From contig DJPE01000014.1 of the NCBI GenBank assembly GCA_002439705.1, positions 321-48,490 on the forward strand: DNA of 48,170 bases, given 5' to 3'. This DNA comes from Christensenella sp. UBA6420. GTDB lineage: Bacteria > Bacillota > Clostridia > Christensenellales > DTU072. The translations under genes and the position numbers were made by a program. How positions within the stretch are numbered: the stretch's first letter is position 1; each line of letters opens with the position of its first letter. Below the pieces are notes generated by a model. It was given only the letters and a program-made list of their open reading frames with translations. It had not been told where the DNA came from and ran no database searches. This document shows, in pieces, positions 10,402 through 38,062 of this stretch.

Positions 10402-13400
10402 TTATTCTGTTATTTCAATTTCGTTCCAATATTCTACGGTAATTCGCGGATAACTGCCGTCGGCGACCGCTGTTCTTTCCCCTGTTACGCTGCCGTCCGT
10501 TGCTATCGTATATGTCGTTTGATAGTATGTGTTAATTTTAATAACGTCGGTATCGGGGATATACGTGCAGTTGTACTCGTCGTTCCTCGTTCCCCCTGCT
10601 AATATCGTAGTTTGTGCCATCTGCACGCCGTTAAAATTATTGCTTCCCTGCGAGCCTGATACCGCGGCTACGTTCCAAACATGGGGGATGTAACCTCTGC
10701 CTGCAACAGTTATTCCACTGAAAACGTAAAAGCTTTTTGCAGTGCTGACAATGTTATAGAGTAGCTTTACGGCGGAAATATCTGTATTTCTCAAATCTAT
10801 CGTAGCCGTGTATTTAGCGAGTCCTATAGGTATTTGTTCAAATATTAATTCGTCCGTATCCGGCGCTGTCGATGAAAAATTTAATACGAATTTAATTATA
10901 CCTTCTTCACCTGCCGACGCAAGAAATGTCATATCATAGTCTATATTACCATTCCCGTCGTCACTAAGAACCATTACAGACGTAAGCGTAGCCACTACCA
11001 AACTTGACGTATCATCAGCCATATTGCAAATTACAGGTTGTCCGTTGTTAAAAGCATTTATTGCCGCTTTCGCGTTTACCCCCAAAACTCCACCTTCAGC
11101 TGTGACGGCTAAAACGTATGCTCCGCTTCCACCGCCGCCCGTACCGTCTTTTCCGTTCGTTACGGTAAAATCATACGTTTGTCCATTCGTCAGAGTTATC
11201 GTGTATGTATCCACAAGTCCTTGTGTCGCCGTTTTGACGATGCTGCTTATGCCTACTCCGTCGTCGCCTTTTGCTCCCGTTGCACCCGTCGCACCGGTAT
11301 CGCCCTTATCGCCTTTCGCTCCTGCAGTTCCTGTAATTTCAGTAATAGCGTTTACTTCCGCCGTTACTAAAGTTCCGCTAATTGCGGTTACTGTGAGCGC
11401 ACCAATAAAACTTTGTATATCAGCACTACCGGGTGTCTTAAAAACGCCTATAAAGTTCTCATTTATTGCTGGCGTTCTATTAAAATTCGATAATGATGTT
11501 GTTATCGTACTACCTATTCCTGTGGGCTCGTTACGGTCATATATAAGAAAATGACTTATTGTGAGTGCATCTAACCCATCATCACCTTGAATTCCCTGTA
11601 TGCCTTGTTTGCCTTGCGCTCCCTGCGGTCCCTGTGCACCTTGAGGACCTTGCGGTCCTTGTATCCCTTGCGCGCCTGACAAATCTGTTATGAACTCATA
11701 TTTCGTTTCGCCTTTTACGTAAAGCTGCGCGTTTTCTTCATCTTCCACGTTGCCCGTTGATATCATAACGAATTCGCCTATTAATACGCCGTCAGTTGCA
11801 TATCCTGCATTCATTGCAGATACCGATTCGTAGATTTTCGATATAGCAAAAGGAGCACCCACGTCACCTTGAGGACCTTGAATACCTTGGGGACCTTGTA
11901 TACCCTGTGGACCTTGTTCCCCCTGCGGTCCTTGTATACCTTGCTCTCCTGTCGCACCTTTCTCCCCGGTAATTTTAACAAGAGTGTTTATAGTTGCTTG
12001 TTTCCCTATGGGATTATCTGCATCCCAATTAGACACCGTAAGCCCTACGATATAGCTCGTACTATTATAACGCATTACCGTTGTAAATTCGTCACCTAAG
12101 TAAGGCATACGATTAAAGACTAAGCTGCTTATAACTACCAAATCTCCGACAGCAGGGGCATCTCCTGTACGTGTTAAAAAGCTACTTGTCGTAAGTGCAC
12201 TAAGTCCAGTAGCACCTCTTTCACCTCGTGTTCCCTGCGGTCCCTGAATACCTTGAACTCCTTGTTCTCCTTGCGGACCTCGTATTGACGCTCCGGGTTT
12301 AAAAATCGAATAATCATTTTCAGAAATGCTCGCTACTTGAGCTACATATCCGTCTTGGAACGTCACCATATCGTATTCCGTCAACGTCGTCGAGTCTGGT
12401 TTTAGCTTGCTCTTATCATATTTGTCATTATCTTTGACGTAATTTTCTTCTGCGGTATACCAATCGGTTTTAATCTTCGCCCAATTGTATACCCGAAAAA
12501 CATAATTCTTGACATCAACGTACGAAACTTGCGCCGTGTATCCGTTCCTAAAAGATATCATATCGCCGTCTTTGAGTCTACCTACAGTCCCTGGAGTCAA
12601 CGAACCTATTACGTATTCTGTACTTAATGAATTTGGAACGCAGTCAGTGCTACAAAAGTACCATTTGTACGGTGGAAACATCGTTCCCGTAAAACAAAGC
12701 AACTGTCCGCTAAACGGTTCTTTAACGCCTTCTATAAGCAAAGAACCGTCGGAACCTTTGAATATCGTATCCGCCGTAATCACACATCCACTATGCGCCG
12801 CATTTGTTTCTATCGTATATCTCTCATTAAGCACTTCCGATGTTTCTACCGTATACGTTTTTTCGGAATCGGCAGCCACTTGCGCAAAGAAATCGGCATT
12901 ATATTGTCCCGTTTGCATACTTGAAAAAGCAAGGTCGTATAACCCCGTAGCGTCTTGCATCGAACCTTGTGCTACCCACGAATCTTTAGAGAATGAAATG
13001 ACAGTCATTCCGTTCACCGTTTCAGGTTCTGTTGCGGTAGGAATACGGAACAGAGCAGTAGTGCCGTCAGAATAATACTTAGTAAAGTAAGTATACCCGT
13101 CGTTTGAAGTCTTCGACGTTATGTCTACGAGAACTCTGCGTACGGTCACGTTCTCTACTTTAGAAACTCGCTCATCGAGATTTTGAAGATACGCTTCGTC
13201 TTGCGCTAAATACGCCAATATTAAGTCGTAGACGTCGGTACTCGGGTCGGGCACCATATCTTTCGGAAGTTGAACCGAAGACTCTACGAGAAAATTGAAC
13301 ATATAGCTCGTTTGGTTACGGTTAGGATAAGTCGTGGCGACGATAGAACATTGAACGTTCCCCGCTACGTTCGTTACCGCCGTGGGCAACGTATAAGTCC

Positions 13401-13662
13401 AACAATTTACCCCGTATTCGGCAGGAACAGTCTTCAACAACGTCATCGGAGCGTAGCCTATATTCGTTAACGCTTTCGTTGCCCTTACCGTCGTCGTTCC
13501 CAACGGCGCCAAGTTTCCGTCGGGAAGAATAAAGCCTATCTTCATCGAAGTGTTTGCCGGGAACGGGGAATAAACGTGAATTTCCGAAACGTTGCTACTT
13601 TGATATATTCGTTCGGGTGTAACCACTTTTGCTTCTCCCGTAAGTGAAAGAAAAATATCCAT
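10402..13662 (-). CDS. Tail fibre / receptor-binding protein with four collagen-like (Gly-X-Y) segments
   Basis: 1086 aa. GPQGEQGVQGIQGPQGTRGERGATG; GEKGATGEQGIQGPQGEQGPQGIQGPQGIQGPQGDVG; GAQGIQGPQGPQGAQGPQGAQGKQGIQGIQGDDG; GTAGAKGDKGDTGATGATGAKGDDG. Paralogous globular modules lie between them. Confidence 0.8.
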   Translation of the reverse strand: MDIFLSLTGEAKVVTPERIYQSSNVSEIHVYSPFPANTSMKIGFILPDGNLAPLGTTTVRATKALTNIGYAPMTLLKTVPAEYGVNCWTYTLPTAVTNVAGNVQCSIVATTYPNRNQTSYMFNFLVESSVQLPKDMVPDPSTDVYDLILAYLAQDEAYLQNLDERVSKVENVTVRRVLVDITSKTSNDGYTYFTKYYSDGTTALFRIPTATEPETVNGMTVISFSKDSWVAQGSMQDATGLYDLAFSSMQTGQYNADFFAQVAADSEKTYTVETSEVLNERYTIETNAAHSGCVITADTIFKGSDGSLLIEGVKEPFSGQLLCFTGTMFPPYKWYFCSTDCVPNSLSTEYVIGSLTPGTVGRLKDGDMISFRNGYTAQVSYVDVKNYVFRVYNWAKIKTDWYTAEENYVKDNDKYDKSKLKPDSTTLTEYDMVTFQDGYVAQVASISENDYSIFKPGASIRGPQGEQGVQGIQGPQGTRGERGATGLSALTTSSFLTRTGDAPAVGDLVVISSLVFNRMPYLGDEFTTVMRYNSTSYIVGLTVSNWDADNPIGKQATINTLVKITGEKGATGEQGIQGPQGEQGPQGIQGPQGIQGPQGDVGAPFAISKIYESVSAMNAGYATDGVLIGEFVMISTGNVEDEENAQLYVKGETKYEFITDLSGAQGIQGPQGPQGAQGPQGAQGKQGIQGIQGDDGLDALTISHFLIYDRNEPTGIGSTITTSLSNFNRTPAINENFIGVFKTPGSADIQSFIGALTVTAISGTLVTAEVNAITEITGTAGAKGDKGDTGATGATGAKGDDGVGISSIVKTATQGLVDTYTITLTNGQTYDFTVTNGKDGTGGGGSGAYVLAVTAEGGVLGVNAKAAINAFNNGQPVICNMADDTSSLVVATLTSVMVLSDDGNGNIDYDMTFLASAGEEGIIKFVLNFSSTAPDTDELIFEQIPIGLAKYTATIDLRNTDISAVKLLYNIVSTAKSFYVFSGITVAGRGYIPHVWNVAAVSGSQGSNNFNGVQMAQTTILAGGTRNDEYNCTYIPDTDVIKINTYYQTTYTIATDGSVTGERTAVADGSYPRITVEYWNEIEITE
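11257..12279 (-). repeat. Coding collagen-like triplet repeats (4 blocks) interleaved with duplicated globular modules
   Basis: Blocks at about 12205-12279, 11857-11967, 11575-11676 and 11257-11331. The modules LSALTTSSFLTRTGDAPAVGD...NRMPYLGDEF and LDALTISHFLIYDRNEPTGIG...NRTPAINENF are paralogous. Confidence 0.85.
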
Positions 13663-16467: not shown

Positions 16468-16493
16468 AAAAAAAGCACTCTTTCGAGTGCCTT
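16468..16493 (-). terminator. Rho-independent terminator closing cassette A
   Basis: Minus strand reads GCACTC-GAAA-GAGTGC followed by TTTTTTT. It is nearly the same hairpin as at 27982-28009. Confidence 0.7.
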
Positions 16494-16515
16494 ATTCTAT
16501 TTTTCGTAAGTTCCT

Positions 16516-16788
16516 TTATTCCTCGTCCAAACCGTAGTTGTCTAATTCAGCGGCAAAATACATTATCAATTCAAATTTATCATGAGCCAAGAAGCGCGTT
16601 TCTAAATCACATTCGTTACTGTACAAATATCTTATGTTGATATCATTGTCTTTGATAAATTGAGTGATTATCGGTATCCTTTCAGGATGACGTAATGCCG
16701 AAGTTCTTACCATATCAAGATTATCGTCCGGGTCGTTTATTGCATCAATAAGGTCTATAAAGTCTTGAATTTCTTTTTCAGTTATCAT
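16516..16788 (-). CDS. Conserved 90-aa acidic protein, copy A (unknown function)
   Basis: GGAGAGAG RBS then MITEKEIQDFIDLIDAINDPDDNLDMVRTSALRHPERIPIITQFIKDNDINIRYLYSNECDLETRFLAHDKFELIMYFAAELDNYGLDEE. Paralogue of 28403-28675. I moved the start to Met21 of the track ORF because the RBS and nucleotide conservation begin there. Confidence 0.7.
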   Translation of the reverse strand: MITEKEIQDFIDLIDAINDPDDNLDMVRTSALRHPERIPIITQFIKDNDINIRYLYSNECDLETRFLAHDKFELIMYFAAELDNYGLDEE

Positions 16789-16808
16789 TTTTCTCTCTCC
16801 ATAATATT
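16516..16808 (-). repeat. 293-bp direct repeat, copy A (partner at 28403-28695)
   Basis: Aligned by eye. Identical runs of about 37, 35 and 47 nt, for example gtcttgaatttctttttcagttatcatttttctctctccataatatt. Confidence 0.85.
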
Positions 16809-16919
16809 GTGTATTGAAAACCATGTTCGCTATCCAATAATTTAACAAAATATTTCTATTCTGTACATATTTTTAATGTGACCCTGAATATCAAGAGTTT
16901 CTTCACATCTCATAATATA

Positions 16920-17129
16920 TCACTCTGGACGGTCTTTTATCAATAATGCAAATGATAAAATTTGAGACTGAGTAAGTTCTTCATGATTATAAAGAAATGA
17001 CGCCATTGCTATTAATTTTTCATATGTTTGCAACATTAAGCAAACCCCCATAACAGCATTGTCGCTTACGCCTTTATTTTTTAGGAGCTTTATTACTTCT
17101 TTCCTTTTGCCATCAATATCAAAATTCAT
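16920..17129 (-). CDS. Small hypothetical protein (69 aa), unique to cassette A
   Basis: The ORF overlaps the upstream gene by 11 nt. AT-rich, CpG-poor composition like the rest of the cassette. Confidence 0.5.
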   Translation of the reverse strand: MNFDIDGKRKEVIKLLKNKGVSDNAVMGVCLMLQTYEKLIAMASFLYNHEELTQSQILSFALLIKDRPE

Positions 17130-17568
17130 TGCGCAATACCTCCTGCACTTTCATAATTATTTCTTCATTCCCTTCTATCGATATTTTTGCAAGCGGAACT
17201 ATTGAACCATATCCCAAATGATTATATAACACAAACGACTTATTGGTAAAGTCCCCATCTATACATTGTTTATGCCCAAGTCTTTTTATTGCTTGTTGCG
17301 AGATAACTGCATATTCGTATTTACTTAATACTATTTGAGTTTCTATCTCTTTTACTGGATTTATTGTGCGAGAAACAATTCTATCAACATACTCGTAAAA
17401 GTCTCTATTGACTTTTGAAATAAATTTAATACTAGCAATTTCATTTTGCCGTAAAGCCGCTTTATTTCCTATCTGCACAAGTTTTTCGACTTGCAATAAA
17501 CTATTTCTCTTGTCGGTAAACTTCCCGTCACCGTCCCTCGGATGGTCTTCTTCTCTGAACGTAGTCAT
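17119..17568 (-). CDS. HPRDGDGKF-motif protein A (149 aa, unknown function)
   Basis: MTTFREEDHPRDGDGKFTDK..., sharing only this N-terminal motif with 28665-29057. The start overlaps the upstream stop as TAATG. Confidence 0.65.
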   Translation of the reverse strand: MTTFREEDHPRDGDGKFTDKRNSLLQVEKLVQIGNKAALRQNEIASIKFISKVNRDFYEYVDRIVSRTINPVKEIETQIVLSKYEYAVISQQAIKRLGHKQCIDGDFTNKSFVLYNHLGYGSIVPLAKISIEGNEEIIMKVQEVLRNEF

Positions 17569-17876
17569 TATAACACACTCCTTCCCTTAAAGCAAGTAAG
17601 CCACGTAGTATCTCTATCACCCGTAACGTAATCGAGTTTCTCTAAAAGCTCGTCGTTATCTTCATCCCTTATTTCGATACGCACGTGCGTAAAAGGCGGT
17701 ATAAATCCTATTCCTTCCGACTCATCCGATATATCCAAAGTACGCGCTTGCATATCGAGAGACGACGTATCGAGCTCTTCGTCTAACGGATTCTCGAAAT
17801 AAATATCCCTGTGGAAATTCTCTATCTCTTTCCAAACTCCGTTTATCTTTGCTTTGACCGAATATTTAAGCGTCAT
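17568..17876 (-). CDS. Hypothetical virion/tail-region protein (102 aa)
   Basis: ORF in the late operon. Acidic. No motif recognised. Confidence 0.45.
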   Translation of the reverse strand: MTLKYSVKAKINGVWKEIENFHRDIYFENPLDEELDTSSLDMQARTLDISDESEGIGFIPPFTHVRIEIRDEDNDELLEKLDYVTGDRDTTWLTCFKGRSVL

Positions 17877-22685: not shown

Positions 22686-22976
22686 TCATTGCATCCACTC
22701 GGTTTTCCATAATGGCTGAATAACTTTTACGCTTTCTATCTGGTCTAAATAGACCGTAAACCCAAACGGCGTTGAGTTATCACAAGTTACTCCGAACGCC
22801 GCCACGTTATAATCGTTATCGTCTGCATCTTCACATTCGTCGACGTAGCCTCGGATTACTTTATATCCATAAATATCCTTGCCTTCTTTCAAAACGATTT
22901 CGACAAATTCAAGAAAGAAGTCATTAAAGTTTTCTTCGGTCACGTTCGTATAAATTTCGTTTATCTTTACTGCCAT
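22686..22976 (-). CDS. Small acidic protein downstream of MuF (candidate immunity protein)
   Basis: 96 aa with an acidic patch DECEDADDNDY. It sits immediately 3' of the MuF gene carrying a C-terminal extension and is followed by a terminator. Confidence 0.5.
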   Translation of the reverse strand: MAVKINEIYTNVTEENFNDFFLEFVEIVLKEGKDIYGYKVIRGYVDECEDADDNDYNVAAFGVTCDNSTPFGFTVYLDQIESVKVIQPLWKTEWMQ

Positions 22977-23008: not shown

Positions 23009-24463
23009 TCATAAATACGGCACTATGTGAAGTCCTTTTTTAGAGTAATGTATCTTTGCCTTTTGGGTCGGTATCTTTTTCCCGTTTCTATATACAAAAC
23101 CTATTCGCTTGTCCGTCTCTATTATTTCTCGTATACCGTTTTGTTGTTCTGCTTGCACCCATCCACTACCGGCATATCTATCGATAATATTTTGAACTTC
23201 GCTTATACTTATCGTCACGATGCTTTTCCCTTGCATATACTCATTGCTTCCCGGTATATGCTTATTTTGTTTGCCGACGTGGACTTTTAGTGGATATTCT
23301 CCATTCTTTATTTTCGTTCGCAGAGTTTCTTTCGTGCGACTAAGAACGTTTATATGTTTATCAATTTCTTTCTTGCAACTATCGTTGATAAGTTCTTCAC
23401 CGTCGAATTCTTTGCATCTCCACGGATAAAAAGCTACTTTGTTTGCATTGCTATAATCGACGTATTTTTTGTAAAGCTCTTTGGCTTTCTTCCGTTGCTT
23501 TGCGGCTTCAATCGGGTCTATTTCTTTCAGACATATACTTTTCTTTATCGCTCGACGAGTTTCGCGCTCCAAATATCTTTGCGTTTTCTCGATATTGCGT
23601 TCTTTCTCTATCGCTTCTGCCGATATATGTATCGGTCCGTTCCCTTTACGATACGGAATAAGAAAATGCCGACAGTTAAAGCCGCTTATACAGCCGTTTT
23701 TATAAGTCTTTCCCGATTTGGTCGTATAATATATATCCGTAGCGTCGGAAAGCGGTCTGAATTCTTTTCCGTCGATTTTTCCGCTCCTGCCGCTTATGCT
23801 GTAAAGTTTTCCTTGCCACGGCTCGCAACGCTCCGAACAATTTCCGTGCGTAGATATCCAAACGAGGTCTTCTCCTTGCTCCGTCAACGCTCTAAGCTCT
23901 TCTTTTTGTCGCTCACTGCGTTCGCGCATCTCCGCTACGTTACGCAAACTTACGTTACTCGAATAGCTGTCCTTTGCTTCGGAATCTGCAAGCTCTCTGA
24001 ACGTTTTTTCTACTCTCTTTGCGTACGTTTCAGTGTATTCGTTTAACGGTTGAGCCGTTTCCCAATATCGCCCGACGGGTTCGACGATTTGTTGCAACTG
24101 CGGATTCGCTAACGTTATTTTCTCGGCGGCTTTTCTCTTTTGCTCGTCCGTTGCTTTCGGATTTCGTATCGTCACGACGTAAGGCAAAAGCCCTGCGTGT
24201 AGTCCAAAAAGTTCCGTCTTCGCTTTTCGATATTGTATCGTTGCGTAATAATAAAGCGATTTTTTAATTCTTTCTCGAAACTCTTCGTCTTCTATTGCGG
24301 GAGTCCATAGGTTTATCGCTCGCGATATTTGAGCGTTAACTTCAAGCCAAGCGCGATTGTATAAAACGGCGCTCTTAATGATTGCCCTTATCGCCGCTTG
24401 TGCTTTTTCCAAATCTAACGTCTGCGGAGAAAGTTCTTCGCGTTTAGTCGGTTTATTTATCAT
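23009..24463 (-). CDS. SPP1 gp7 / Mu F-like head morphogenesis protein with an extra C-terminal module of about 100 aa
   Basis: MuF-type core VWISTHGNCSERCEPWQGKLYS...GCISGFNCRHFLIPY. ATGA overlap with the portal gene. The C-terminal module is LKVHVGKQNKHIPGSNEY...IHYSKKGLHIVPYL. Confidence 0.8.
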   Translation of the reverse strand: MINKPTKREELSPQTLDLEKAQAAIRAIIKSAVLYNRAWLEVNAQISRAINLWTPAIEDEEFRERIKKSLYYYATIQYRKAKTELFGLHAGLLPYVVTIRNPKATDEQKRKAAEKITLANPQLQQIVEPVGRYWETAQPLNEYTETYAKRVEKTFRELADSEAKDSYSSNVSLRNVAEMRERSERQKEELRALTEQGEDLVWISTHGNCSERCEPWQGKLYSISGRSGKIDGKEFRPLSDATDIYYTTKSGKTYKNGCISGFNCRHFLIPYRKGNGPIHISAEAIEKERNIEKTQRYLERETRRAIKKSICLKEIDPIEAAKQRKKAKELYKKYVDYSNANKVAFYPWRCKEFDGEELINDSCKKEIDKHINVLSRTKETLRTKIKNGEYPLKVHVGKQNKHIPGSNEYMQGKSIVTISISEVQNIIDRYAGSGWVQAEQQNGIREIIETDKRIGFVYRNGKKIPTQKAKIHYSKKGLHIVPYL

Positions 24464-26012: not shown

Positions 26013-27470
26013 CTAAATGAAATTATAATAATATTCGTACGTTGCGTATTTGTCTGCGTCTACGGTATGGTCTTCCTGTCCTTCTTCTATTTCGCCCTCT
26101 TCGTTGCGAACGAAATTCTCCATTTCTATTACGGACGGTTCGTTATCGTCGACGTCCAACATCAGGAACTTACCGCTTCGCCATCCCGTATTTAACCTCG
26201 CAAGGTCGCGTTCTACGTCTTTGTTCGTGACCGCAACGCATTTTGCGGGCGTTAGTTTTTCAACCTCCAACATAAGGTCCTGCGTCAACCCCGCGCCGTC
26301 GAAACAATATCTCTCGGCTTTACTATCGGGAATGATTATTCCGTAATCTCTCATCTTACGTTTGAATTCTTCGTGGTACTCCATCAGCATAACCGCTTGT
26401 TCCGTATGGCTTAGACCGCGAGCTCCCGTCACTCGCATATATTGCTTTACGTCTATCTTTTTCGTCGATAACTTTATAAGCCGTCCGTCAGGATATAACG
26501 CCCAACTACTTACCGCCGTAGCGTCGTTCTTTAACCCGCTATCTACGCCATAAAACATATATACGGGTTGATAGAAAATGTCTTTGTTTATTTTCCGTTG
26601 AATTTCCGATACGCGAATAAGATGCCTTTCCCTATCGAACGCCCAAACGACTCTGCCTTCAAGGTTCATTAGTTCGCCTTCGTACCAATACGCGTAATGT
26701 ATCGGGTCGTTAATTTTCATTTGGAGAATATCCGCTATTTGCGCGGGTTCCAAAAGGTCCGCTATATCTCTCCACGTCGGGTTTATCTCTATTGCGCCCT
26801 GTTCTCTCACGAGTTTCGGAAAGTATTGATTCGCCCAATGATTAAGAGACGGAGGCGGGTTGTATCGGTAAACGTATTTTGAGTTTTCGTCAAGAAATCG
26901 TATAGCCGTAGACCTAAGCGCTTCGACGTATATCTTCCCGTCGGGCTCGTTTGCTTCTTCGAGTATAACTTTTTTGAGTTTGCCGCTCGGCGGTTCGTAT
27001 CCTTTCGTACGGTTTATATCTCCGTTTATCGCAAGGAATTGACATTTATTTCCCGTCGCGTTGCAAGTAATCTCAAACGGCGATTTGCTTATTTTGAAAT
27101 CGGCTCCCGAATGTTCCGAAAGACTGAACCCCATAGAAAATATCGTAGATTGCATCGACTGAAAAATGCTTTTTCTTATATCGACTTGTTCGCTTCTGCA
27201 ATACCATATATCGCCGCGAGAGCCGAAAAAAAGCGGCACCGTCGAGAACTCGTCGTTCTTCGTTTTGCCGCTATTACGTCCCCCGTGTAACACGAATGTT
27301 TTGACTCCCACGTCGTTTAAGCTTACCGTTTCGCCTTTAAGAATTCTTCTGCGTAATTCACTTTTATACGCGTCGGTGAACTTTTCTTGCTCTCGTCTCG
27401 AATAGTTATCGACGAATAAAGGCTTAAAGATATTTGGTATCGTTATATTCTTAACCGTTTGTTCCATCAT
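26013..27470 (-). CDS. terL: Terminase large subunit
   Basis: 485 aa. Walker A-like LHGGRNSGKT and an acidic nuclease half. It overlaps terS by 20 nt. Confidence 0.85.
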   Translation of the reverse strand: MMEQTVKNITIPNIFKPLFVDNYSRREQEKFTDAYKSELRRRILKGETVSLNDVGVKTFVLHGGRNSGKTKNDEFSTVPLFFGSRGDIWYCRSEQVDIRKSIFQSMQSTIFSMGFSLSEHSGADFKISKSPFEITCNATGNKCQFLAINGDINRTKGYEPPSGKLKKVILEEANEPDGKIYVEALRSTAIRFLDENSKYVYRYNPPPSLNHWANQYFPKLVREQGAIEINPTWRDIADLLEPAQIADILQMKINDPIHYAYWYEGELMNLEGRVVWAFDRERHLIRVSEIQRKINKDIFYQPVYMFYGVDSGLKNDATAVSSWALYPDGRLIKLSTKKIDVKQYMRVTGARGLSHTEQAVMLMEYHEEFKRKMRDYGIIIPDSKAERYCFDGAGLTQDLMLEVEKLTPAKCVAVTNKDVERDLARLNTGWRSGKFLMLDVDDNEPSVIEMENFVRNEEGEIEEGQEDHTVDADKYATYEYYYNFI

Positions 27471-27942
27471 TTGCGCTCGTATCCTTGAAGTTAAAATTAA
27501 ATACGGGTTGTATCTGAGCTTGTCCCGTATCCGAGTCGATTTTGTCTTTCCAAACTTTCGGACGTTGATTTTTCAGCCAAAACTTTTGAGCTTCGACGAC
27601 GGGCGGAATATAAACTTCTTCGTATGCGTCGATAACGGTCTCTTCTTCTGCTACGACTTTGCCGTTTTCATAAATTTTTTTCTTGACTTTTATAGGCTTA
27701 ATTACCTTAACTTTTTTCCCTATACACGACGAATACAACGCGCCTTCAACTTCATCGGTCGCAATTTCTCGCGTGCGCGTTATTATCTCATCGAACTCTT
27801 TATGCTCTTTTTTGTATTTATAAAAAGTAGCTTCGCTTATACCTAATTTTTCTATTATCTCGTTATTAAGAAGTCCTTTACTTATCCAAGAACTAATTAA
27901 GTCTAAATTATCAAGTATAGTTTCTTTATATTTACTTTTCAC
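27451..27942 (-). CDS. terS: Terminase small subunit (HTH type)
   Basis: 163 aa, GTG start with AGGAGG RBS. N-terminal HTH (NNEIIEKLGISEATFYKYKK). Immediately upstream of terL. Confidence 0.7.
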   Translation of the reverse strand: MKSKYKETILDNLDLISSWISKGLLNNEIIEKLGISEATFYKYKKEHKEFDEIITRTREIATDEVEGALYSSCIGKKVKVIKPIKVKKKIYENGKVVAEEETVIDAYEEVYIPPVVEAQKFWLKNQRPKVWKDKIDSDTGQAQIQPVFNFNFKDTSANDGTNG

Positions 27943-27981
27943 TTAATTACCTCCTGTATAGTTTTTTATTTTATAAATTAC

Positions 27982-28009
27982 AAAAGAAAAGCACCCTTTC
28001 GGGTGCCTT
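27982..28009 (-). terminator. Rho-independent terminator closing cassette B
   Basis: Minus strand reads GCACCC-GAAA-GGGTGC followed by TTTTCTTTTG. Same design as 16468-16493. Confidence 0.7.
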
Positions 28010-28161
28010 ATGAATTTACTATTTTTATGGACTTTTACCAATCTATCATATAACTGCGAAACGTAACTTCTCTGCGTGGGTCGCCGAACTCAGTGCAACT
28101 TGCCCAATACTCCATTTCTTTACGTCCTTCTTCGCTTATTTTGCCATCAGGTCCTAAAATT

Positions 28162-28365
28162 TTATAAATCTTCTTCACACAAATGATAAATAGTATCGCT
28201 TGATACTCCGTACTCTGAAAATACGGCTTCTAAATTTTTCCGAAGCTCTTTGAGCGGAATACCGTTAAAATATTTATTTGCTTTTTCTTGCGTCATTCTA
28301 ACACTATCTACTATCATACCCTGCCTCCTATAATTCGCTATATTTTGATTTATGTACTCTCCCAC
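28162..28365 (-). CDS. Small hypothetical protein (67 aa), unique to cassette B
   Basis: ORF only. No motif recognised. Confidence 0.45.
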   Translation of the reverse strand: MGEYINQNIANYRRQGMIVDSVRMTQEKANKYFNGIPLKELRKNLEAVFSEYGVSSDTIYHLCEEDL

Positions 28366-28402
28366 TTTTTAGTGCTTGCTTATAGGCATTCCGAACCGTA
28401 AT

Positions 28403-28675
28403 TTATTCCTCATCTAAACCATAATTGTCTAATTCGGCAGCAAAATCCATTATCAATTCAAATTTATCATGAGCCAAGAAGCGCGTCTCTAAATCACATT
28501 CGTTACTGTACAAATATCTTATATCTATATCATTATCTTTAATGAATTGAGTGACTATGGGTATTCTTTCAGGATGTCGCAAACAAGATATCCGCACCAT
28601 AATTAAACTATCTTCCTTATCGTTTATTTCATCAATAAGGTTAATGAAGTCTTGAATTTCTTTTTCAGTTATCAT
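28403..28675 (-). CDS. Conserved 90-aa acidic protein, copy B (unknown function)
   Basis: MITEKEIQDFINLIDEINDKEDSLIMVRISCLRHPERIPIVTQFIKDNDIDIRYLYSNECDLETRFLAHDKFELIMDFAAELDNYGLDEE. Same RBS context as copy A. Confidence 0.7.
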   Translation of the reverse strand: MITEKEIQDFINLIDEINDKEDSLIMVRISCLRHPERIPIVTQFIKDNDIDIRYLYSNECDLETRFLAHDKFELIMDFAAELDNYGLDEE

Positions 28676-28695
28676 TTTTCTCTCTCCATAATATT
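28403..28695 (-). repeat. 293-bp direct repeat, copy B (partner at 16516-16808)
   Basis: See copy A. The offset between copies is 11887 bp. Confidence 0.85.
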
Positions 28696-29057
28696 TTATA
28701 TCTGAAATCTTCATTACTTCCATACAGTTTCACACCATATATATACTCAAATGTATATATTACAAACTCCGCATACCCTTTTTTTTCAAGCTCTTGTCTT
28801 ACCGTACTTATTCTATCAAACACCGCGCTTTCGATGCGTAACTTATCGGCTTGATATTTGCTACCCGCTTCTTTTTGTCGATTTTCGTTTACGCGAGCGT
28901 TTATGCTATCGGATAATTCTCGTCTTTGTCGTTTGACTCTCTCGGCTACGGCTACGAGTCTATCTATATCGATCGCTCCCGACACGGATACTCCGTTCTT
29001 ATCGGTAAACTTCCCGTCACCGTCCCTCGGATGCTCACTCTCCCTAAATACGCTCAT
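28665..29057 (-). CDS. HPRDGDGKF-motif protein B (130 aa, unknown function)
   Basis: MSVFRESEHPRDGDGKFTDK..., then a sequence unrelated to protein A. GGAGG RBS. Confidence 0.65.
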   Translation of the reverse strand: MSVFRESEHPRDGDGKFTDKNGVSVSGAIDIDRLVAVAERVKRQRRELSDSINARVNENRQKEAGSKYQADKLRIESAVFDRISTVRQELEKKGYAEFVIYTFEYIYGVKLYGSNEDFRYKILWREKNDN

Positions 29058-29084
29058 AGTATACCATACCTCCGCTTTCTCTGC

Positions 29085-29120
29085 AATAAAAAAGGCGAAG
29101 ATTTTTACATCCTCGCCTTT
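29085..29120 (-). terminator. Terminator-like hairpin upstream of cassette B (after the late-regulator gene)
   Basis: Minus strand reads AAGGCGA...TCGCCTT with a long loop, followed by TTTTTTATT. Confidence 0.45.
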
Positions 29121-29209
29121 CTGCCGACATTATCATAACATAATTATCGGCGGGGGTGTCGGGGGAAAAGTGGGGTTTTTGTGGGAAGTTTTACGCGTAT
29201 TTCAATTCG

Positions 29210-29686
29210 CTATACGTCTTCCGATATAACGTCCGTATTGTCTCTCTTCTCGTCGTTATTATCCGCGTCAAATTCGGACCACATCGCCGAAAACGGCTCA
29301 ATCTCTCTTATTGCTTCGTTAAACAATTCTTTCCTTACGTAACTCGTTTCGTAATCGAGATATCGCGCTATTCGACGCCAGTCTTCGCCGAGAATATATC
29401 GACGCTTTAATAATACCCGCGACAAATTGCTCACTTCGGGGTTACTTGCTATCTTTGCAATAACTTCTTTGTATTTCATAAGCCGCGTCAATTCCCGCTG
29501 TAAATCGACTTGCATTGCGGCTAAGCGTATGCGCTTGTCAATCTCGCGGTTCTCTCTGACTGAGCTTTTTCCCCGCTCCGTCGGTTGCTGCGGATGGGGA
29601 TAAAGAAGACGCTCTATGCACTCCTGCGTCGTCTGAATGTTTTGGTTTATGTATCGTGCTTTCGCTAAAAACTCTTTTGCCGTCAT
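29210..29686 (-). CDS. Putative late-gene transcriptional regulator (sigma-70 region-4 / ArpU-RinA-like)
   Basis: 158 aa. C-terminal HTH-like LLKRRYILGEDWRRIARYLDYETSYVRKEL. It occupies the usual position upstream of the packaging genes. Confidence 0.4.
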   Translation of the reverse strand: MTAKEFLAKARYINQNIQTTQECIERLLYPHPQQPTERGKSSVRENREIDKRIRLAAMQVDLQRELTRLMKYKEVIAKIASNPEVSNLSRVLLKRRYILGEDWRRIARYLDYETSYVRKELFNEAIREIEPFSAMWSEFDADNNDEKRDNTDVISEDV

Positions 29687-29699
29687 ATTTCTTATCCTT

Positions 29700-31319
29700 C
29701 TATATTGCCATTTTGTGATGTAATTCGTTCAACGTTGTTATATTTGTTCTAAGACATTCATTCGGAAGATTTGCTCTTGCCATAGCTTCAGCTATGACCG
29801 GACATACTGCGTTGCCACATCTCGCCACTTGGTCTGCACGACTTATTGGTCTTCCGTTTTCATCACGGTCTATAATATAGTCATGCGGAAATCCCATGGC
29901 ATCATATAACTCTCTCGGCGTAAGCATTCTCAACCCTATGTCTGAAATAAAAAACAACTCTCCTTTTATTCTTAAAAGCAAGACCTCGTCTTCTCTAATA
30001 GAATATCCGCAAAAACTATTTAAAAGGTCTCTTATCATACTCCAGTTACCATATGCTTGCGAATTTTCGGCTTTAACAAGCAAGATGTTCGCCGCAGCAT
30101 ACTTCTCCCGTGCCATAACTGTCATTAAAGGTTCTTGTACGGACTGTCCTTTATCTGCCCCTCTAAAATCTACGAGATATGCTGCAATTAACGAATTATG
30201 GTCTATTGCCGTTACTGTCGGCAATGGCTCTGTTATTTCATTCCCATCTACTCCCGTATAATATTTTTGTATAAATGCAGAAACGACGCCTTCTCTTTCC
30301 ATTGTCGTTATCGTCGCAAGTGGTTTGCGAACGTCATGGTAATGTCCATCCCCGGAAAAATATTGTGTAAGATGTACCGCTGATAAATAATTCTTTGAAC
30401 CGGACGTTACCACAGGTAATGGTTGATTTACATCCGAACCTTTATCGTTAAAATTATTCACCATAATCGTCGGTGCTGTTGAATCAACAATAAATGGACT
30501 CTTTGACTTCAGTACAAATTTATCTACACCTAAAGCTATGCGTCTAAGCGTATTTGTCTTTAACGGACGCATACAATTAACTCCGTAAGTTTCTTTTAAT
30601 TCCTGTTTCGTAGCAAAAATCGAGTAACATGGTAATTTAAAATCGATGATATCCGCTGCAGCTTTCCACGGCTTTAATTTACCGCATCTAACTTCTATAC
30701 TATTAATCGGAGCATGTGTCTTTTTCGGGAATACAATTGGTTTGCCATCACACCGTGCGATAAGACAAAATCTCGTTCGCGTCGTTGGCGCACCATAATC
30801 GGCAGCACACAAATTCTTTGTTCCTATCTCATAACCCAAGTCCGAAAGTTGAGTCTTCCATTTATTGTAAGTTTGTCCCGCTTTGCTTTTTACAGGCTTT
30901 CCGTTCCGCACCGGTCCCCATGTTACAAATTCAGGTACATTTTCAAGCATTATGATATCAGGACGTACAGCCGCTGCCCAACGCAATACGACCCACGCAA
31001 GTCCTCTTATTTTTTTATCAACGAGCGCCGCACCCTTCGCACGCGAAAAATGTTTACAGTCGGGAGAAAACCACGCGAGACGTACATTTCGACCACGGCA
31101 AACTTCTTTCGGGTCAACAGCCCATATATCTTCACGATAATGTTCTGTGTATGGGTGGTTCATTTTATGCATCAAAATCGCACTTTCATTGTGATTTATC
31201 GCTATATCTACGGGATGCCCGGTCGCTAATTCAAGTCCTGTAGATGCGCCTCCGCCACCTGCAAAATTATCGACGATAATATCATCAAATATTCCTATCT
31301 GTTTGTTGCATCTTATCAT
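29700..31319 (-). CDS. DNA (cytosine-5)-methyltransferase, orphan, with a long variable region
   Basis: Motif I DNFAGGGGAS, motif IV FSPDCKHFS, motif VI ENVPEF, TTRTRF, motif X GNAVCP. About 290 aa lie between motif VIII and motifs IX/X. No adjacent restriction gene. Confidence 0.9.
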   Translation of the reverse strand: MIRCNKQIGIFDDIIVDNFAGGGGASTGLELATGHPVDIAINHNESAILMHKMNHPYTEHYREDIWAVDPKEVCRGRNVRLAWFSPDCKHFSRAKGAALVDKKIRGLAWVVLRWAAAVRPDIIMLENVPEFVTWGPVRNGKPVKSKAGQTYNKWKTQLSDLGYEIGTKNLCAADYGAPTTRTRFCLIARCDGKPIVFPKKTHAPINSIEVRCGKLKPWKAAADIIDFKLPCYSIFATKQELKETYGVNCMRPLKTNTLRRIALGVDKFVLKSKSPFIVDSTAPTIMVNNFNDKGSDVNQPLPVVTSGSKNYLSAVHLTQYFSGDGHYHDVRKPLATITTMEREGVVSAFIQKYYTGVDGNEITEPLPTVTAIDHNSLIAAYLVDFRGADKGQSVQEPLMTVMAREKYAAANILLVKAENSQAYGNWSMIRDLLNSFCGYSIREDEVLLLRIKGELFFISDIGLRMLTPRELYDAMGFPHDYIIDRDENGRPISRADQVARCGNAVCPVIAEAMARANLPNECLRTNITTLNELHHKMAI

Positions 31320-35657: not shown

Positions 35658-35867
35658 CTATTTCTTGAAAAGATATTCGAGGGTTAAGTCCGGGAAGTAA
35701 GTTTCGCGTATTTTAAACATTTCTCCGGACTTAAATTCACTTTTACCGAGCATTTTTAGATTAAGTCCGCGTCCCGTGATATTAAGCAACTTTGCTAATT
35801 CCGTTTGAGTAATCTTTCGTTCTTTTAGTTCCGAATATAAATTCTTATACATTTTCTTTAACTCCAA
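35658..35867 (-). CDS. Cro-like XRE-family HTH regulator
   Basis: 69 aa with ITQTELAKLLNITGRGLNLKMLGK. Met6 (start at 35852) is an alternative start. Confidence 0.6.
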   Translation of the reverse strand: MELKKMYKNLYSELKERKITQTELAKLLNITGRGLNLKMLGKSEFKSGEMFKIRETYFPDLTLEYLFKK

Positions 35868-36648
35868 AGTGTATTTTTATAAGCTCAATAAGAGCCTTGT
35901 ATTCCCTTCCGTATACGTTATTTGCGTGTGTTTCCTCTACTTTTGCGGCGAATTCATTAAGCTCGCCCGTAAAGCAACCGCAATTTACACTTAGTCCGCC
36001 ACTTTTGTTTTTAAATACAGTCGTTGTATCAATTCTTGAACCCATATTGGTAATCCAAAGAATATCGGCATCACGACAAACAAAAGCATCTCCACAAACC
36101 TTGGCATCACCGTGAACAGAACCACAGGCACGCACCCAAGCCTCACCGCAAACCTTGGCATTCCCATAAATCTGGGCATTGCCACAAATCCAAGCATTAC
36201 CGCAAATCTTAGCCTCACCGTGAACCCAAGCATCGCCGTGAACCAGAGCATAGCCGCAAACTTGAGCATTTCCGTAAACCCAAGCACTACCGAAAACCTT
36301 AGCATCTCCGTGAACCAATGCACTGCCGTAAACCCGAACAGTCTCGAAAACATGAGCATTGCCGCAAACTTGGGCATCTCCGTAAATTTGCGCGTTGTCA
36401 TAGACTTGAGAATTACTATAAACCCAAGCGTTGTCTCGAACCTTGGCATCACCATAAACCTTGGCATTGTCGTAAACTTTGGCATTGTCGTAAACCCAAG
36501 CATTGCCATATTGCGAAAGATTCTCTTCTTTCTCTATCCATCCGCCTAAATCGCCTTTCTTTACGTTGCCAAAGTCCCTGAGTGCTTCTATCTGATAGAA
36601 CGTGTGTCCGAGCCATACTTTTTTGTTTTCCGTTAAACGATATTTCAT
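35845..36648 (-). CDS. Hexapeptide-repeat (beta-helix/solenoid) protein, first gene of the leftward early transcript
   Basis: 267 aa. N-terminal KKVWLGHTFYQIEALRDFGNVKKGDLGGWIEKEENLSQ, then 25 consecutive hexads (YGNAWV YDNAKV YDNAKV YGDAKV ... CGDAFV CRDADI), then a C-terminal domain ...NCGCFTGELNEFAAKVEETHANN.... Confidence 0.8.
   Translation of the reverse strand: MKYRLTENKKVWLGHTFYQIEALRDFGNVKKGDLGGWIEKEENLSQYGNAWVYDNAKVYDNAKVYGDAKVRDNAWVYSNSQVYDNAQIYGDAQVCGNAHVFETVRVYGSALVHGDAKVFGSAWVYGNAQVCGYALVHGDAWVHGEAKICGNAWICGNAQIYGNAKVCGEAWVRACGSVHGDAKVCGDAFVCRDADILWITNMGSRIDTTTVFKNKSGGLSVNCGCFTGELNEFAAKVEETHANNVYGREYKALIELIKIHFGVKENV
36061..36510 (-). repeat. 18-bp-periodic coding repeat (25 hexapeptide units)
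   Basis: aa 47-196 of the ORF above. All three frames on both strands stay open here, which is a repeat artefact in the ORF track. Confidence 0.9.
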
Positions 36649-36811: not shown

Positions 36812-37108
36812 ATGGAAATAATTGAAATTAAAAAATATCTCAAAGACAATAAAATTACTTACGAAAAGTTGAGCGAACTATCCCAAGTTCCTTTAAACAC
36901 ATTAAAAAACATATTCAGCGGTCGTACGCCGACTCCCCGCATAGATACCATTCAATCCATCGAAAAAGCTCTCGGTTTGGATAACAACTCTTCTTCTGCC
37001 GCTAATACCATAAATACAGAGTTGCTTAATCTTATTCCACTGCTTACTCCTCAACAAGTTGAACAAACTGTCGACTTCGTTAAATTCTTACTTTCTAAAA
37101 ACTCTTGA
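36812..37108 (+). CDS. XRE-type HTH protein, repressor-NTD paralogue 1 (no peptidase domain)
   Basis: MEIIEIKKYLKDNKITYEKLSELSQVPLNTLKNIFSGRTPTPRIDTIQSIEKALGLD, plus a short tail ending DFVKFLLSKNS. Confidence 0.75.
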   Translation: MEIIEIKKYLKDNKITYEKLSELSQVPLNTLKNIFSGRTPTPRIDTIQSIEKALGLDNNSSSAANTINTELLNLIPLLTPQQVEQTVDFVKFLLSKNS

Positions 37109-37129
37109 CGTAGAAAAATTCTTTACTTT

Positions 37130-37447
37130 ATGGAAATAATTGAAATAAAAAAATATCTTAAAAACAATAAAATAACTTACAAAAAGTTGAGTGCCTTATC
37201 AGGTATCCCACTCACTACTCTTAAATATATATTCAGCGGTCGTACTTCAACCCCACGTATAGACACCATTCAGGCCATCGAAAAAGCTCTTAATTTTGAT
37301 AATCAGCGGGCTAAAATTGAACCTAATTTTATCTCCGACAAACAGCGTCTTCATTACCTTATAGAACAACTTCCCGACGAACTCGTTCTCCAAGTCTGTG
37401 ATTACATTTATTTTTTGCTTTCAAAAAATTCTCTATATAAACTTTAA
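37130..37447 (+). CDS. XRE-type HTH protein, repressor-NTD paralogue 2 (no peptidase domain)
   Basis: MEIIEIKKYLKNNKITYKKLSALSGIPLTTLKYIFSGRTSTPRIDTIQAIEKALNFD, with tail ...DYIYFLLSKNS. No obvious RBS. The ATG lies inside a copy of the operator segment. Confidence 0.65.
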   Translation: MEIIEIKKYLKNNKITYKKLSALSGIPLTTLKYIFSGRTSTPRIDTIQAIEKALNFDNQRAKIEPNFISDKQRLHYLIEQLPDELVLQVCDYIYFLLSKNSLYKL

Positions 37448-37462
37448 AGGAGCTAATTCCAT

Positions 37463-38062
37463 ATGGATATAACATTAATAAAAAAACATTTAAAAGCTAA
37501 TAAAATAACCTATGCTGAATTATCTGAAATGTCTGGCGTTCCTATTCAAACCATACAAAAAGTCTTCTCCGGCAATACTAAACATCCCCGCATAGACACC
37601 ATTCAGTCCATAGAGAAAGCTCTCGGTCTGGATAAGTCGTTCAGTATTTACGATATCCCCGGCATAGAACCTTTACCCGAATTCCGCTCGGTTCCTCTCG
37701 TCGGAACCATCGCTTGCGGCACGCCGACACTCGCAGAAGAGAATATCGAAGAATACGTCAAAATGAGCGACAACGTACGCGCCGATTTTGCTTTACGCTG
37801 CAAGGGCGACAGTATGATTAACGCTCGTATATTCGACGGTGATATCGTATTTATCAGACAGCAACCCGACGTCGAAAACGGCGAGATAGCAGCCGTTCTT
37901 ATAGAGAACGAAGCAACGCTTAAGCGCATATATAAATACGGCTCACGCCTTGAACTGCGCGCTGAAAATCCTACGTTTGCTCCGCTCAATTTCGAGGGCG
38001 AACAACTAAATGAAATTCGCATACTCGGAAAAGCCGTTGCTTTCATATCAACGGTTAGATAA
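37463..38062 (+). CDS. CI/LexA-like phage repressor (HTH plus S24 autopeptidase)
   Basis: The same HTH family as the two upstream ORFs, then the S24 domain: VPLVGTIACGTP, GDSM (catalytic Ser), and LKR with the Lys partner. AAAGGAG RBS. Confidence 0.85.
   Translation: MDITLIKKHLKANKITYAELSEMSGVPIQTIQKVFSGNTKHPRIDTIQSIEKALGLDKSFSIYDIPGIEPLPEFRSVPLVGTIACGTPTLAEENIEEYVKMSDNVRADFALRCKGDSMINARIFDGDIVFIRQQPDVENGEIAAVLIENEATLKRIYKYGSRLELRAENPTFAPLNFEGEQLNEIRILGKAVAFISTVR

Follow-up and report, generated by a model that had tools for sequence, protein, structure and literature searches.

A leader-bearing protein and its acidic partner at an apparently exchangeable accessory site upstream of terS in a phage region of Christensenella sp. 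UBA6420

The stretch of DNA analyzed here, referred to as the window, comprises 48,170 nucleotides (nt) of contig DJPE01000014.1 from Christensenella sp. UBA6420. The analysis concerns a small phage cassette, cassette B, located between a putative transcriptional regulator gene (29210..29686; phrog_36, E 1e-6) and terS (27451..27942; phrog_309, E 2e-32), with all genes of the region encoded on the minus strand. From 5' to 3', the cassette begins at a hairpin followed by a T run 3' of the regulator gene (29083..29120), which forms its 5' boundary, and continues with the gene B1 (28665..29057; 130 amino acids (aa), MSVFRESEHPRDGDGKF...) and the gene B2 (28403..28675; 90 aa from MITEKEIQ), whose start overlaps the B1 end by 11 nt. 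Behind this pair lie the 3' remnant of a zeta-toxin gene (28328..28398, ending in ...YKQALKSGRVHKSKYSEL*), the two halves of a broken 96-aa gene, and a GAAA-loop intrinsic terminator just upstream of terS (27979..28009). In B1, a helical spacer separates the leader from a C-terminal domain of ~60 aa. The leader occupies codons 1-20 (28998..29057, MSVFRESEHPRDGDGKFTDK), with weaker conservation extending to about codon 42, and the body domain, as delimited by a family alignment of B1-body homologues, spans approximately codons 72-127 (28677..28844). B2 is acidic, with an isoelectric point (pI) of 4.26 and a net charge of -14, and is predicted to fold into four helices. A previous reading of the letters without database searches, the sequence-only reading, had listed a 130-aa motif protein, a 90-aa acidic protein, a 67-aa open reading frame (ORF) and flanking hairpins at this locus, and all of these were found on the minus strand.

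Both flanking hairpins were recovered. RNA folding detected the upstream one at -22.8 kcal/mol (z = -4.9, with 0 of 200 shuffles equally stable), and it is kept in the related phages L004 and L021; the consensus terminator scan did not call it. The downstream GAAA-loop terminator (28009..27988) was found by both the scan and the fold (-14.6 kcal/mol, z = -3.5). A scan for sigma-70-like promoters recognised none for B1 or for cassette B, and no Rfam family matched in the window. The sequence TGGTATACT was considered as a B1 promoter, but it lies immediately against the B1 ATG and was dropped for that reason. An unusual C-rich tract (aaaaccccacttttcccccgacacccccgccg), followed by an AT-rich stretch, separates this hairpin from the end of the regulator gene (~29125..29205, minus strand); the tract is likewise kept in L004 and L021 and has neither an Rfam match nor a promoter call.

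Comparison with L021 revealed what previously stood at this site. The two sequences share 94% identity down to position 28998, the end of the leader, and 96% identity from position 28398 on, five bases past the B2 stop codon; these positions mark the 5' and 3' exchange junctions. Between them, the ~600 nt of the B1 body and B2 stand where L021 has a zeta body of ~770 nt, and ~70 nt of the zeta 3' end persist in the window. The B1 body and B2 have thus replaced the zeta body, and we consider allele replacement at fixed sites close to certain. The L021 allele (L021:7046-8249) encodes a 300-aa protein (MNVFRESEHPRDNDGKF...) consisting of the leader and a Pfam Zeta_toxin P-loop domain (E 2e-13); the protein also matches a 'minor head protein' PHROG. 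It is followed by an intact gene for a 96-aa protein (L021:7959-8249) without a family match, a candidate new zeta-toxin partner that is encoded downstream and not upstream of the toxin.

In the window, this 96-aa gene is broken. An 8-nt deletion at ~28170 causes a frameshift that leaves a 51-aa front half (28162..28317, with its ATG at 28317 after AGGAGG) and a back half represented by a 47-aa ORF from GTG (28035..28178), which matches residues ~56-96 of the L021 protein. The 67-aa ORF (28162..28365, GTG start), earlier described as unique, turned out to be the front half preceded by 16 spurious upstream codons, which run through the leftover zeta 3' end; the gene caller of the source contig also reported 51 aa at this locus. 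A further relative, L004, carries at site B a co-diverged allele, with B1 57% and its partner 44% identical to those of the window, and the same zeta stub behind it.

The second site of this kind, site A, carries cassette A, also on the minus strand. Its first gene, A1 (17119..17568), encodes a 149-aa protein with the same leader and an unrelated body, and its start overlaps the stop codon of an upstream 102-aa structural-region gene. The end of A1 is overlapped by A3, a 69-aa ORF (16920..17129). Next, within a homology block starting at 16847, a displaced B1-type gene has left its final 10 codons (TILWREKNDN*; 16778..16810) upstream of acidic copy A (16516..16788), and then comes the twin GAAA-loop terminator of cassette A (16493..16472). 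The gene order differs from that of cassette B. Between A1 and B1, only the first ~45 residues can be aligned, and the 67-aa ORF is unrelated to the 69-aa ORF, as had been read from the letters.

In contigs of phages that are ~97% identical to the window in the flanks (L001-L003), site A is occupied by a B1-type 130-aa gene and an acidic gene. Homology to these relatives ends at 17508, within the leader, and restarts at 16847, and their intervening middle matches window cassette B at 85%. In the window, the A1 body and A3 thus displaced a B1-type body at site A, and acidic copy A stayed in place. A3 is a candidate cognate partner of A1, having come in with the A1 body, and both acidic copies are expected to match B1-type bodies. 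As the leader gene at site A overlaps a structural-region stop codon, its late expression is plausible. In L001 (L001:9620-10000), the B1-type gene at site A is frameshifted and called as 51 aa, and the acidic partner just downstream is intact. Comparative genomics of the variable middles thus recovered zeta, B1 and diverged B1 alleles at site B and the B1 and B2 pair at site A of the relatives. The presence of different leader-led genes at the same two sites bears out the earlier suggestion of a diversifying cassette family rather than a chance duplication.

The two acidic proteins are 88% identical, within the 85-90% estimated before, and their DNA is 86% identical over 300 nt. Synonymous divergence (dS) between copies A and B is 0.94, and the ratio of nonsynonymous to synonymous divergence (dN/dS) is 0.08, with similar values against the relatives' copy; at dN/dS values of 0.08-0.14, purifying selection acts on both copies. 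The regulator gene next to cassette B has, by comparison, a dS of 0.13 between the window and L021, and a dN/dS comparison of TerL was discarded because of an indel. A recent in-genome duplication of the acidic gene was ruled out by the dS of 0.94, which argues that the copies were joined by recombination. They are old alleles maintained by purifying selection and, with the exchange junctions in conserved leader DNA, they agree with the diversification proposed for the cassettes. The acidic protein is rare, with a single cluster beyond the window's own two in an index of 5.8 billion proteins; the contigs of this cluster are L001-L003. Cassettes A and B form direct repeats (16515-16814 / 28402-28701; 17508-17588 / 28997-29077), located ~11.5-11.9 kb apart, that bracket the head and packaging genes; recombination between the two cassettes would delete these genes.

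To extend the analysis of the B1 body, an exhaustive HMMER search with a B1 profile was performed on 1.84 billion representatives (E<=1e-3). It returned 67 hits, ~30 of them small proteins (97-146 aa) with a common C-terminal domain of ~60 aa and the consensus IxSxVFDKISTVRxxLExxGxAxIxVxxxxxxYxVxLYGxxxDYxYxIL. The homologues include P0005 (82% identical) and P0006 (57%). Some B1-body proteins have the HPR leader, some have other conserved N-terminal peptides, and some have none. The alternative peptides, NRLxYGLxKKYGI and GxWxTIxGxPVFI, replace the HPR leader in P0025, P0029, P0050, P0067 and P0034, and may be other tags of the same kind. GxWxTIxGxPVFI is also present in a 310-aa ORF of L008 beside a portal-PBECR1 fusion (GEWRTINGAHVLI).

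An overlapping partner ORF of 77-96 aa was found in 6/6 readable distant homologues (P0010, P0016, P0029, P0009, P0030 and P0034), and the close relatives show the same overlapping arrangement of a B1-type gene and its partner. For P0050, the seventh homologue looked up, the contig stops 20 codons into the next overlapping ORF. The partner ORFs of the distant homologues align with B2 at an hhalign probability of 95.3% (E 2e-8). The contexts of the pair include a position upstream of terS (L151) and, in L157, a portal-MuF-capsid module where the pair lies behind the gene for the major capsid protein. We have hardly any doubt that the B1 body and B2-like proteins constitute a conserved two-gene module. 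The acidic protein follows the B1-type body, not the leader, and is the cognate partner of that body.

Family searches did not connect these proteins with characterized ones. Pfam, PHROGs and PADLOC returned nothing significant for B1, B2, A1, A3 or the 67-aa and 47-aa ORFs; in PADLOC, B1, B2, A3, the 96-aa protein and the zeta allele had no match, and A1 had only weak ones (E ~0.006). Pfam gave no consistent hit at E<=1 among 27 members of the B1-body family, no consistent DNA-binding domain in B2 and eight homologues, no MuF-type domain in B1 or A1, and no match for the 96-aa partner of the zeta allele. PDB sequence profiles were empty for both the B1-body and the B2 family. AlphaFold2 (AF2) modeling of B2 gave a best model with four helices and a predicted local distance difference test score (pLDDT) of 90.6, the remaining four models scoring 62-68, and the B2 model had no fold match in PDB or BFVD.

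Searches for related loci were similarly sparse. With blastn and tblastn against 50,697 phage records, nothing was found for the cassette, B1 or B2, and a solo PBECR1 query against the phage records recovered only the Helicobacter jhp1044-type domain and not the leader. A related-locus search with B2 in IMG/VR and GTDB genomes and a search with the regulator in IMG/VR and JGI metagenomes both returned nothing. The DNA pattern for VFD[KR]ISTVR had 0 occurrences in IMG/VR, and its five hits in GTDB genomes were checked and rejected as chance.

The leader itself follows the consensus (F/W)xExxHPRDxxGKF(T/S) and is succeeded by a Gly-rich linker. Its first eight codons are site-specific: those of site A encode MTTF(R/K)EED, and those of site B encode M(S/N)VFRES(E/D). 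The core DNA HPRDGDGKFTDK is common to both sites, with a 24-nt core identical in A1 and B1, and the window contains exactly two occurrences of the motif DNA versus 0 expected from shuffles. Since the first codons are site-specific and the core is shared, the 5' crossover was placed in the leader core.

The leader is widespread beyond these phages. An exact scan of IMG/VR for HPRDGDGKF yielded 15 loci, and a relaxed scan for E..HPRD..GKF yielded at least 120 loci, with 150 in-frame occurrences among the matches listed, to which all of the following domain and position counts refer. In 98% of them, F or W occupies position -5, though the search pattern left it free, and a Gly/Ser-rich stretch lies behind the motif. 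The motif is N-terminal in 42 solo proteins, with a median of 193 aa behind it, and internal in 103 cases, with a median of 469 aa ahead and 303 aa behind. By Pfam, the parts upstream of internal copies contain Phage_portal_3 (30/90), Phage_portal_2, Portal_Mu, Phage_Mu_F and DUF2213, as well as the polyvalent domains NUDIX, InPase, ART-PolyVal and an ATLF-type peptidase. The downstream parts contain Zeta_toxin (7), TopoIB (6), PBECR1 (5), LPD3 (4), ADP-ribosyltransferase (4), RelA_SpoT (3), NUDIX (3), SAM lyase (2) and ParB_N (2), and the solo leader proteins contain Zeta_toxin, PBECR3, LPD3, LPD13, ART-PolyVal, TopoIB, NUDIX, GNAT and SAM lyase. Counting downstream and solo leader proteins together, Zeta_toxin occurs 10 times, and PBECR1-3 are also present.

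Large proteins hold two to five leader copies, and in giant polyvalent proteins the leader recurs from one domain to the next. Two solo leader proteins are located within the head module in L013, L015 and L020, and in L005 a leader protein lies directly behind a MuF-like ORF. No relevant paper came up when the full-text literature was searched for the motif strings. It is highly probable, given these contexts, that the leader is tied to portal-linked effectors. That it serves as a virion-loading signal is a more tentative proposal, to which we give slightly less than an even chance.

Cassette B is best explained as one allele of an exchangeable accessory slot. Two slots of this kind occur in the phage lineage: site B, which the regulator gene and terS enclose, and site A, which is flanked by two structural-region genes. 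Each allele comprises a leader of ~20 aa, a variable cargo domain and then a small abutting or overlapping partner gene. In the mechanism we propose, B1 would be the cargo, or effector, and its leader an address or linker peptide taking the cargo into the virion; the cargo would then enter the next host together with the DNA. In the producing cell, B2 would act like an immunity protein by binding and neutralising B1. Recombination would bring in new alleles, with one crossover in the conserved leader DNA and the other downstream, and the downstream crossover would strand orphan partners, as in the C-terminal displacement at polymorphic-toxin loci. Taken as a complete mechanism, the account we favour, by a modest degree of confidence, is that of a leader-tagged effector which is delivered by the virion, has an immunity-like partner and is exchanged through recombination at the leader.

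Several lines of evidence support the antidote role of B2: the translational coupling of the two genes and the co-variation of B1 and B2 in L004, the intact acidic gene beside the frameshifted B1-type gene in L001, the decay of the 96-aa gene after the loss of its zeta partner, and the enrichment of abutting small acidic ORFs behind leader proteins. We regard the role of B2 as neutraliser of B1 as evenly balanced. A wider proposal is that the leader may be a portable address tag of many unrelated tailed phages, that its coding DNA may act as the crossover point, and that B1 and B2 may form a new effector-immunity family; we put this forward with some reserve, as somewhat doubtful in its full extent. 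Under this proposal, the cargo would be loaded through the portal/MuF vertex, with the tag acting by docking or as a processing site, and would be delivered with the DNA. Through the coding DNA, phages would exchange cargo/antidote cassettes from one fixed slot to another as well as from genome to genome.

Some observations weigh against the favoured account. Terminator-like hairpins flank cassette B and no promoter was recognised for it, and in this respect it resembles a moron more than a late structural gene. The P0030 pair (L154) is leaderless and has luxS and gyrB as its neighbours, with no visible phage genes, which implies that the pair can work without virion delivery. The AF2 model of B1 is poor (pLDDT 57), showing a long helix followed by a beta hairpin, and the B1 body is small and without an obvious catalytic signature. 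No relative of B2 was found among known immunity, antitoxin or DNA-mimic proteins. Abutting small acidic ORFs were counted behind 26/106 leader proteins versus 41/1247 control ORFs, an odds ratio of 9.6 that is probably overstated because the control set holds spurious ORFs. Finally, what speaks for the leader as a loading signal is the set of places where it occurs.

The insulation of site B by hairpins and the failure to find a promoter leave room for a different explanation, in which B1 and B2 are a prophage-expressed toxin-antitoxin system or an abortive-infection or superinfection-exclusion moron acting in the lysogen, with the leader as a vestige of recombination. Two overlapping genes, one small and basic and the other small and acidic, would suit such a moron, as would the leaderless pair in an apparently non-phage chromosomal context and the Zeta_toxin of the alternative site B allele, a classic toxin-antitoxin toxin fold. 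PADLOC, however, gave no match, and B2 lacks the DNA-binding domain typical of type II antitoxins. The leader is kept in most family members and otherwise replaced by another conserved N-terminal peptide, most contexts fall within head, packaging or tail modules, the site A gene is coupled to a structural-region gene, and the leader is fused to portals elsewhere. We consider an action in the lysogen unlikely on balance, though worth keeping in mind. It is also conceivable that the roles are reversed and that B2 is the true effector, an acidic DNA-mimic inhibitor of host restriction or defence, carried into the capsid by B1, whose leader would provide entry and whose body would bind B2. Mimics of the Ocr/ArdA type are acidic, helical and small, a general look that B2 shares with its net charge of -14, pI of 4.3, helical structure and ~90 aa; the strict co-occurrence of the pair and the strong purifying selection on the acidic gene, even without a B1 partner body, could be understood in the same way. 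Against a mimic stand the lack of sequence or fold likeness to known mimics in PDB and BFVD, the existence of leaderless pairs, and the frameshifted B1-type gene beside an intact acidic gene in L001, which fits an antidote outliving its toxin better. This makes B2 an improbable effector.

Phages commonly encode small acidic chaperones for their structural proteins, and B2 might be a dedicated chaperone or assembly factor for B1 as a non-toxic minor virion protein, that is, a part of ordinary accessory morphogenesis. The location of the pair in structural modules and the translational coupling of its genes are compatible with this role. Yet phages with 94-97% identity in the flanks vary in the presence, absence and allele type of these genes, and the variation, which includes a zeta-toxin and a frameshifted copy, shows that these genes can be dispensed with and exchanged for toxin-type domains. 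As the acidic copy at site A also persists without an adjoining B1 body, we give little credence to a chaperone. The sequence-only reading had favoured a three-part system, in which the motif and acidic proteins are the constant ends and the third small ORF, of 67 or 69 aa, is the variable payload; at first sight, each cassette does consist of three small ORFs, and the two have the leader and the acidic protein in common. This view did not survive the comparison with relatives. The 67-aa ORF is debris, a piece of the frameshifted 96-aa gene of the zeta allele; the gene orders of A and B are unlike, and site A of the relatives has B1 and B2 without a third ORF. The acidic protein, moreover, goes with the B1-type body and not with the leader, leaving a three-part system very hard to maintain.

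If the leader marks virion-delivered cargo, a motif of ~20 aa would allow the injected effectors of a phage to be read from sequence, including many domains without other annotation, and would offer a handle on loading. The locus shows, nucleotide by nucleotide, how temperate gut phages swap putative effector/antidote pairs at fixed hot spots, and the decay of orphans after such swaps is seen at the same locus. It would extend the polymorphic-toxin logic of MuF, contact-dependent inhibition (CDI) and Rhs systems to tiny leader-tagged solo proteins. The B1 body and its B2 partner add two families without a Pfam, PHROG or PDB relative that form a strict gene pair.

Other features were observed elsewhere in the window. 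Next to the regulator gene, a DNA cytosine methylase gene (29700..31319, minus strand) is intact and encodes 539 aa; in the close relative L021 it is split into 376 and 141 aa (L021:4784-6402). A tail-fibre protein of 1086 aa (10402..13662, minus strand), with PHROG tail-fibre and collagen-like hits, contains collagen-like 9-nt (Gly-X-Y) repeats at 11576-12299. Within the ORF at 35845..36648 (minus strand), which encodes a 267-aa protein with a six-residue repeat, 16 copies of an 18-nt periodic repeat occupy 36070-36495. On the plus strand, three tandem ORFs of 98, 105 and 199 aa (36812..38062) have a common 5' segment of ~176 nt with 68-78% identity. The L004 equivalent of the 199-aa ORF contains HTH_3 and Peptidase_S24 and is CI-like, for which reason the tandem ORFs look like a repressor and two short N-terminal paralogues.

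Among known systems, the MuF polymorphic toxins of temperate phages offer a close parallel. They combine a conserved N-terminus with a variable C-terminal toxin, a small ORF lies behind ~89% of the toxin genes (PMC5576092), and virion delivery is presumed (Jamet 2017, PMC5576092); the HPRD..GKF peptide is not mentioned in that paper (PMC5576092). Site B resembles these loci in having variable C-terminal domains in close relatives, each with its own abutting small ORF. B1, in contrast, has no MuF domain and a leader of only 20-45 aa, which means that the cassette is not a MuF toxin; the cassettes are also located elsewhere, one upstream of terS and the other flanked by structural-region genes, and the cargo domain and partner are new families. 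The window does encode a MuF-type minor capsid protein of 484 aa (23009..24463, minus strand) with Phage_min_cap2 and a C-terminal Ntox50 domain (Pfam E 1.2e-23), so the phage already uses such a strategy. Behind this gene lies a 96-aa ORF (22686..22976, minus strand; phrog_1865), likely an immunity gene. The MuF locus is itself polymorphic: the relative L001/L021 has a 365-aa MuF protein without a toxin tail, and L002 has another Ntox50 tail and an 87-aa ORF.

Polyvalent proteins provide a second point of reference. Their solo versions are found among late structural genes and have been proposed to be packaged in the capsid and injected (Iyer 2017, PMC5512222). A leader or linker peptide, cognate small partners and allele swapping at fixed sites are not described there (PMC5512222). 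The leader studied here precedes their repertoire, namely PBECR1-3, LPD3/13, ART-PolyVal, NUDIX, InPase, a zincin-like peptidase, RelA_SpoT and ParB, in virion or late-gene contexts, and it is common to portal-fused and multi-domain proteins. The B1 body, by contrast, matches none of their domains.

Poole et al. (2011, as cited in PMC5576092) reportedly described orphan immunity genes that accompany C-terminal displacement at the polymorphic-toxin loci of CDI/Rhs systems. At such loci, a new toxin-tip/immunity pair enters by recombination at a short pre-toxin sequence that is conserved, and remnants of the old pair stay downstream. Both sites of the window have such remnants: at site B, the zeta 3' stub together with the 96-aa gene, which is decaying, and at site A, the 3' stub of the B1-type gene together with an acidic gene that is intact. 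The cassettes differ in having a phage virion context instead of a secretion system, and a conserved part that is an extreme N-terminal peptide of ~20 aa, not the end of a huge filament protein. The internal proteins of phage T4 share a short N-terminal capsid-targeting peptide that is cleaved by the prohead protease; they are packaged and injected, and some counter host restriction. A short N-terminal peptide common to unrelated small proteins is a likeness to the leader, without sequence similarity, and to our knowledge the T4 proteins have no cognate partner genes.

In the epsilon/zeta system (PezAT), zeta is the toxin of a toxin-antitoxin pair and its partner is encoded upstream. The alternative site B allele likewise combines a Zeta_toxin P-loop kinase domain with a small partner gene. 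Its partner, however, is downstream and has no Pfam match, its toxin bears the phage leader, and cassette B of the window has lost the zeta body entirely. In type II toxin-antitoxin systems, the antitoxin has a DNA-binding domain (HTH, RHH or AbrB), is usually the first gene and autoregulates its operon; here, the partner has no DNA-binding domain, and the toxin-like gene comes first and the acidic gene second. With no PADLOC match for B1 or B2, the cassette is not a known defence system. B2 has a net charge of -14 but was not recognisable as a DNA mimic of the Ocr/ArdA type, as PDB and BFVD gave neither a sequence match nor a fold match. Taken by analogy, the cassette appears to run like a polymorphic toxin locus that draws on the polyvalent-protein effector pool.

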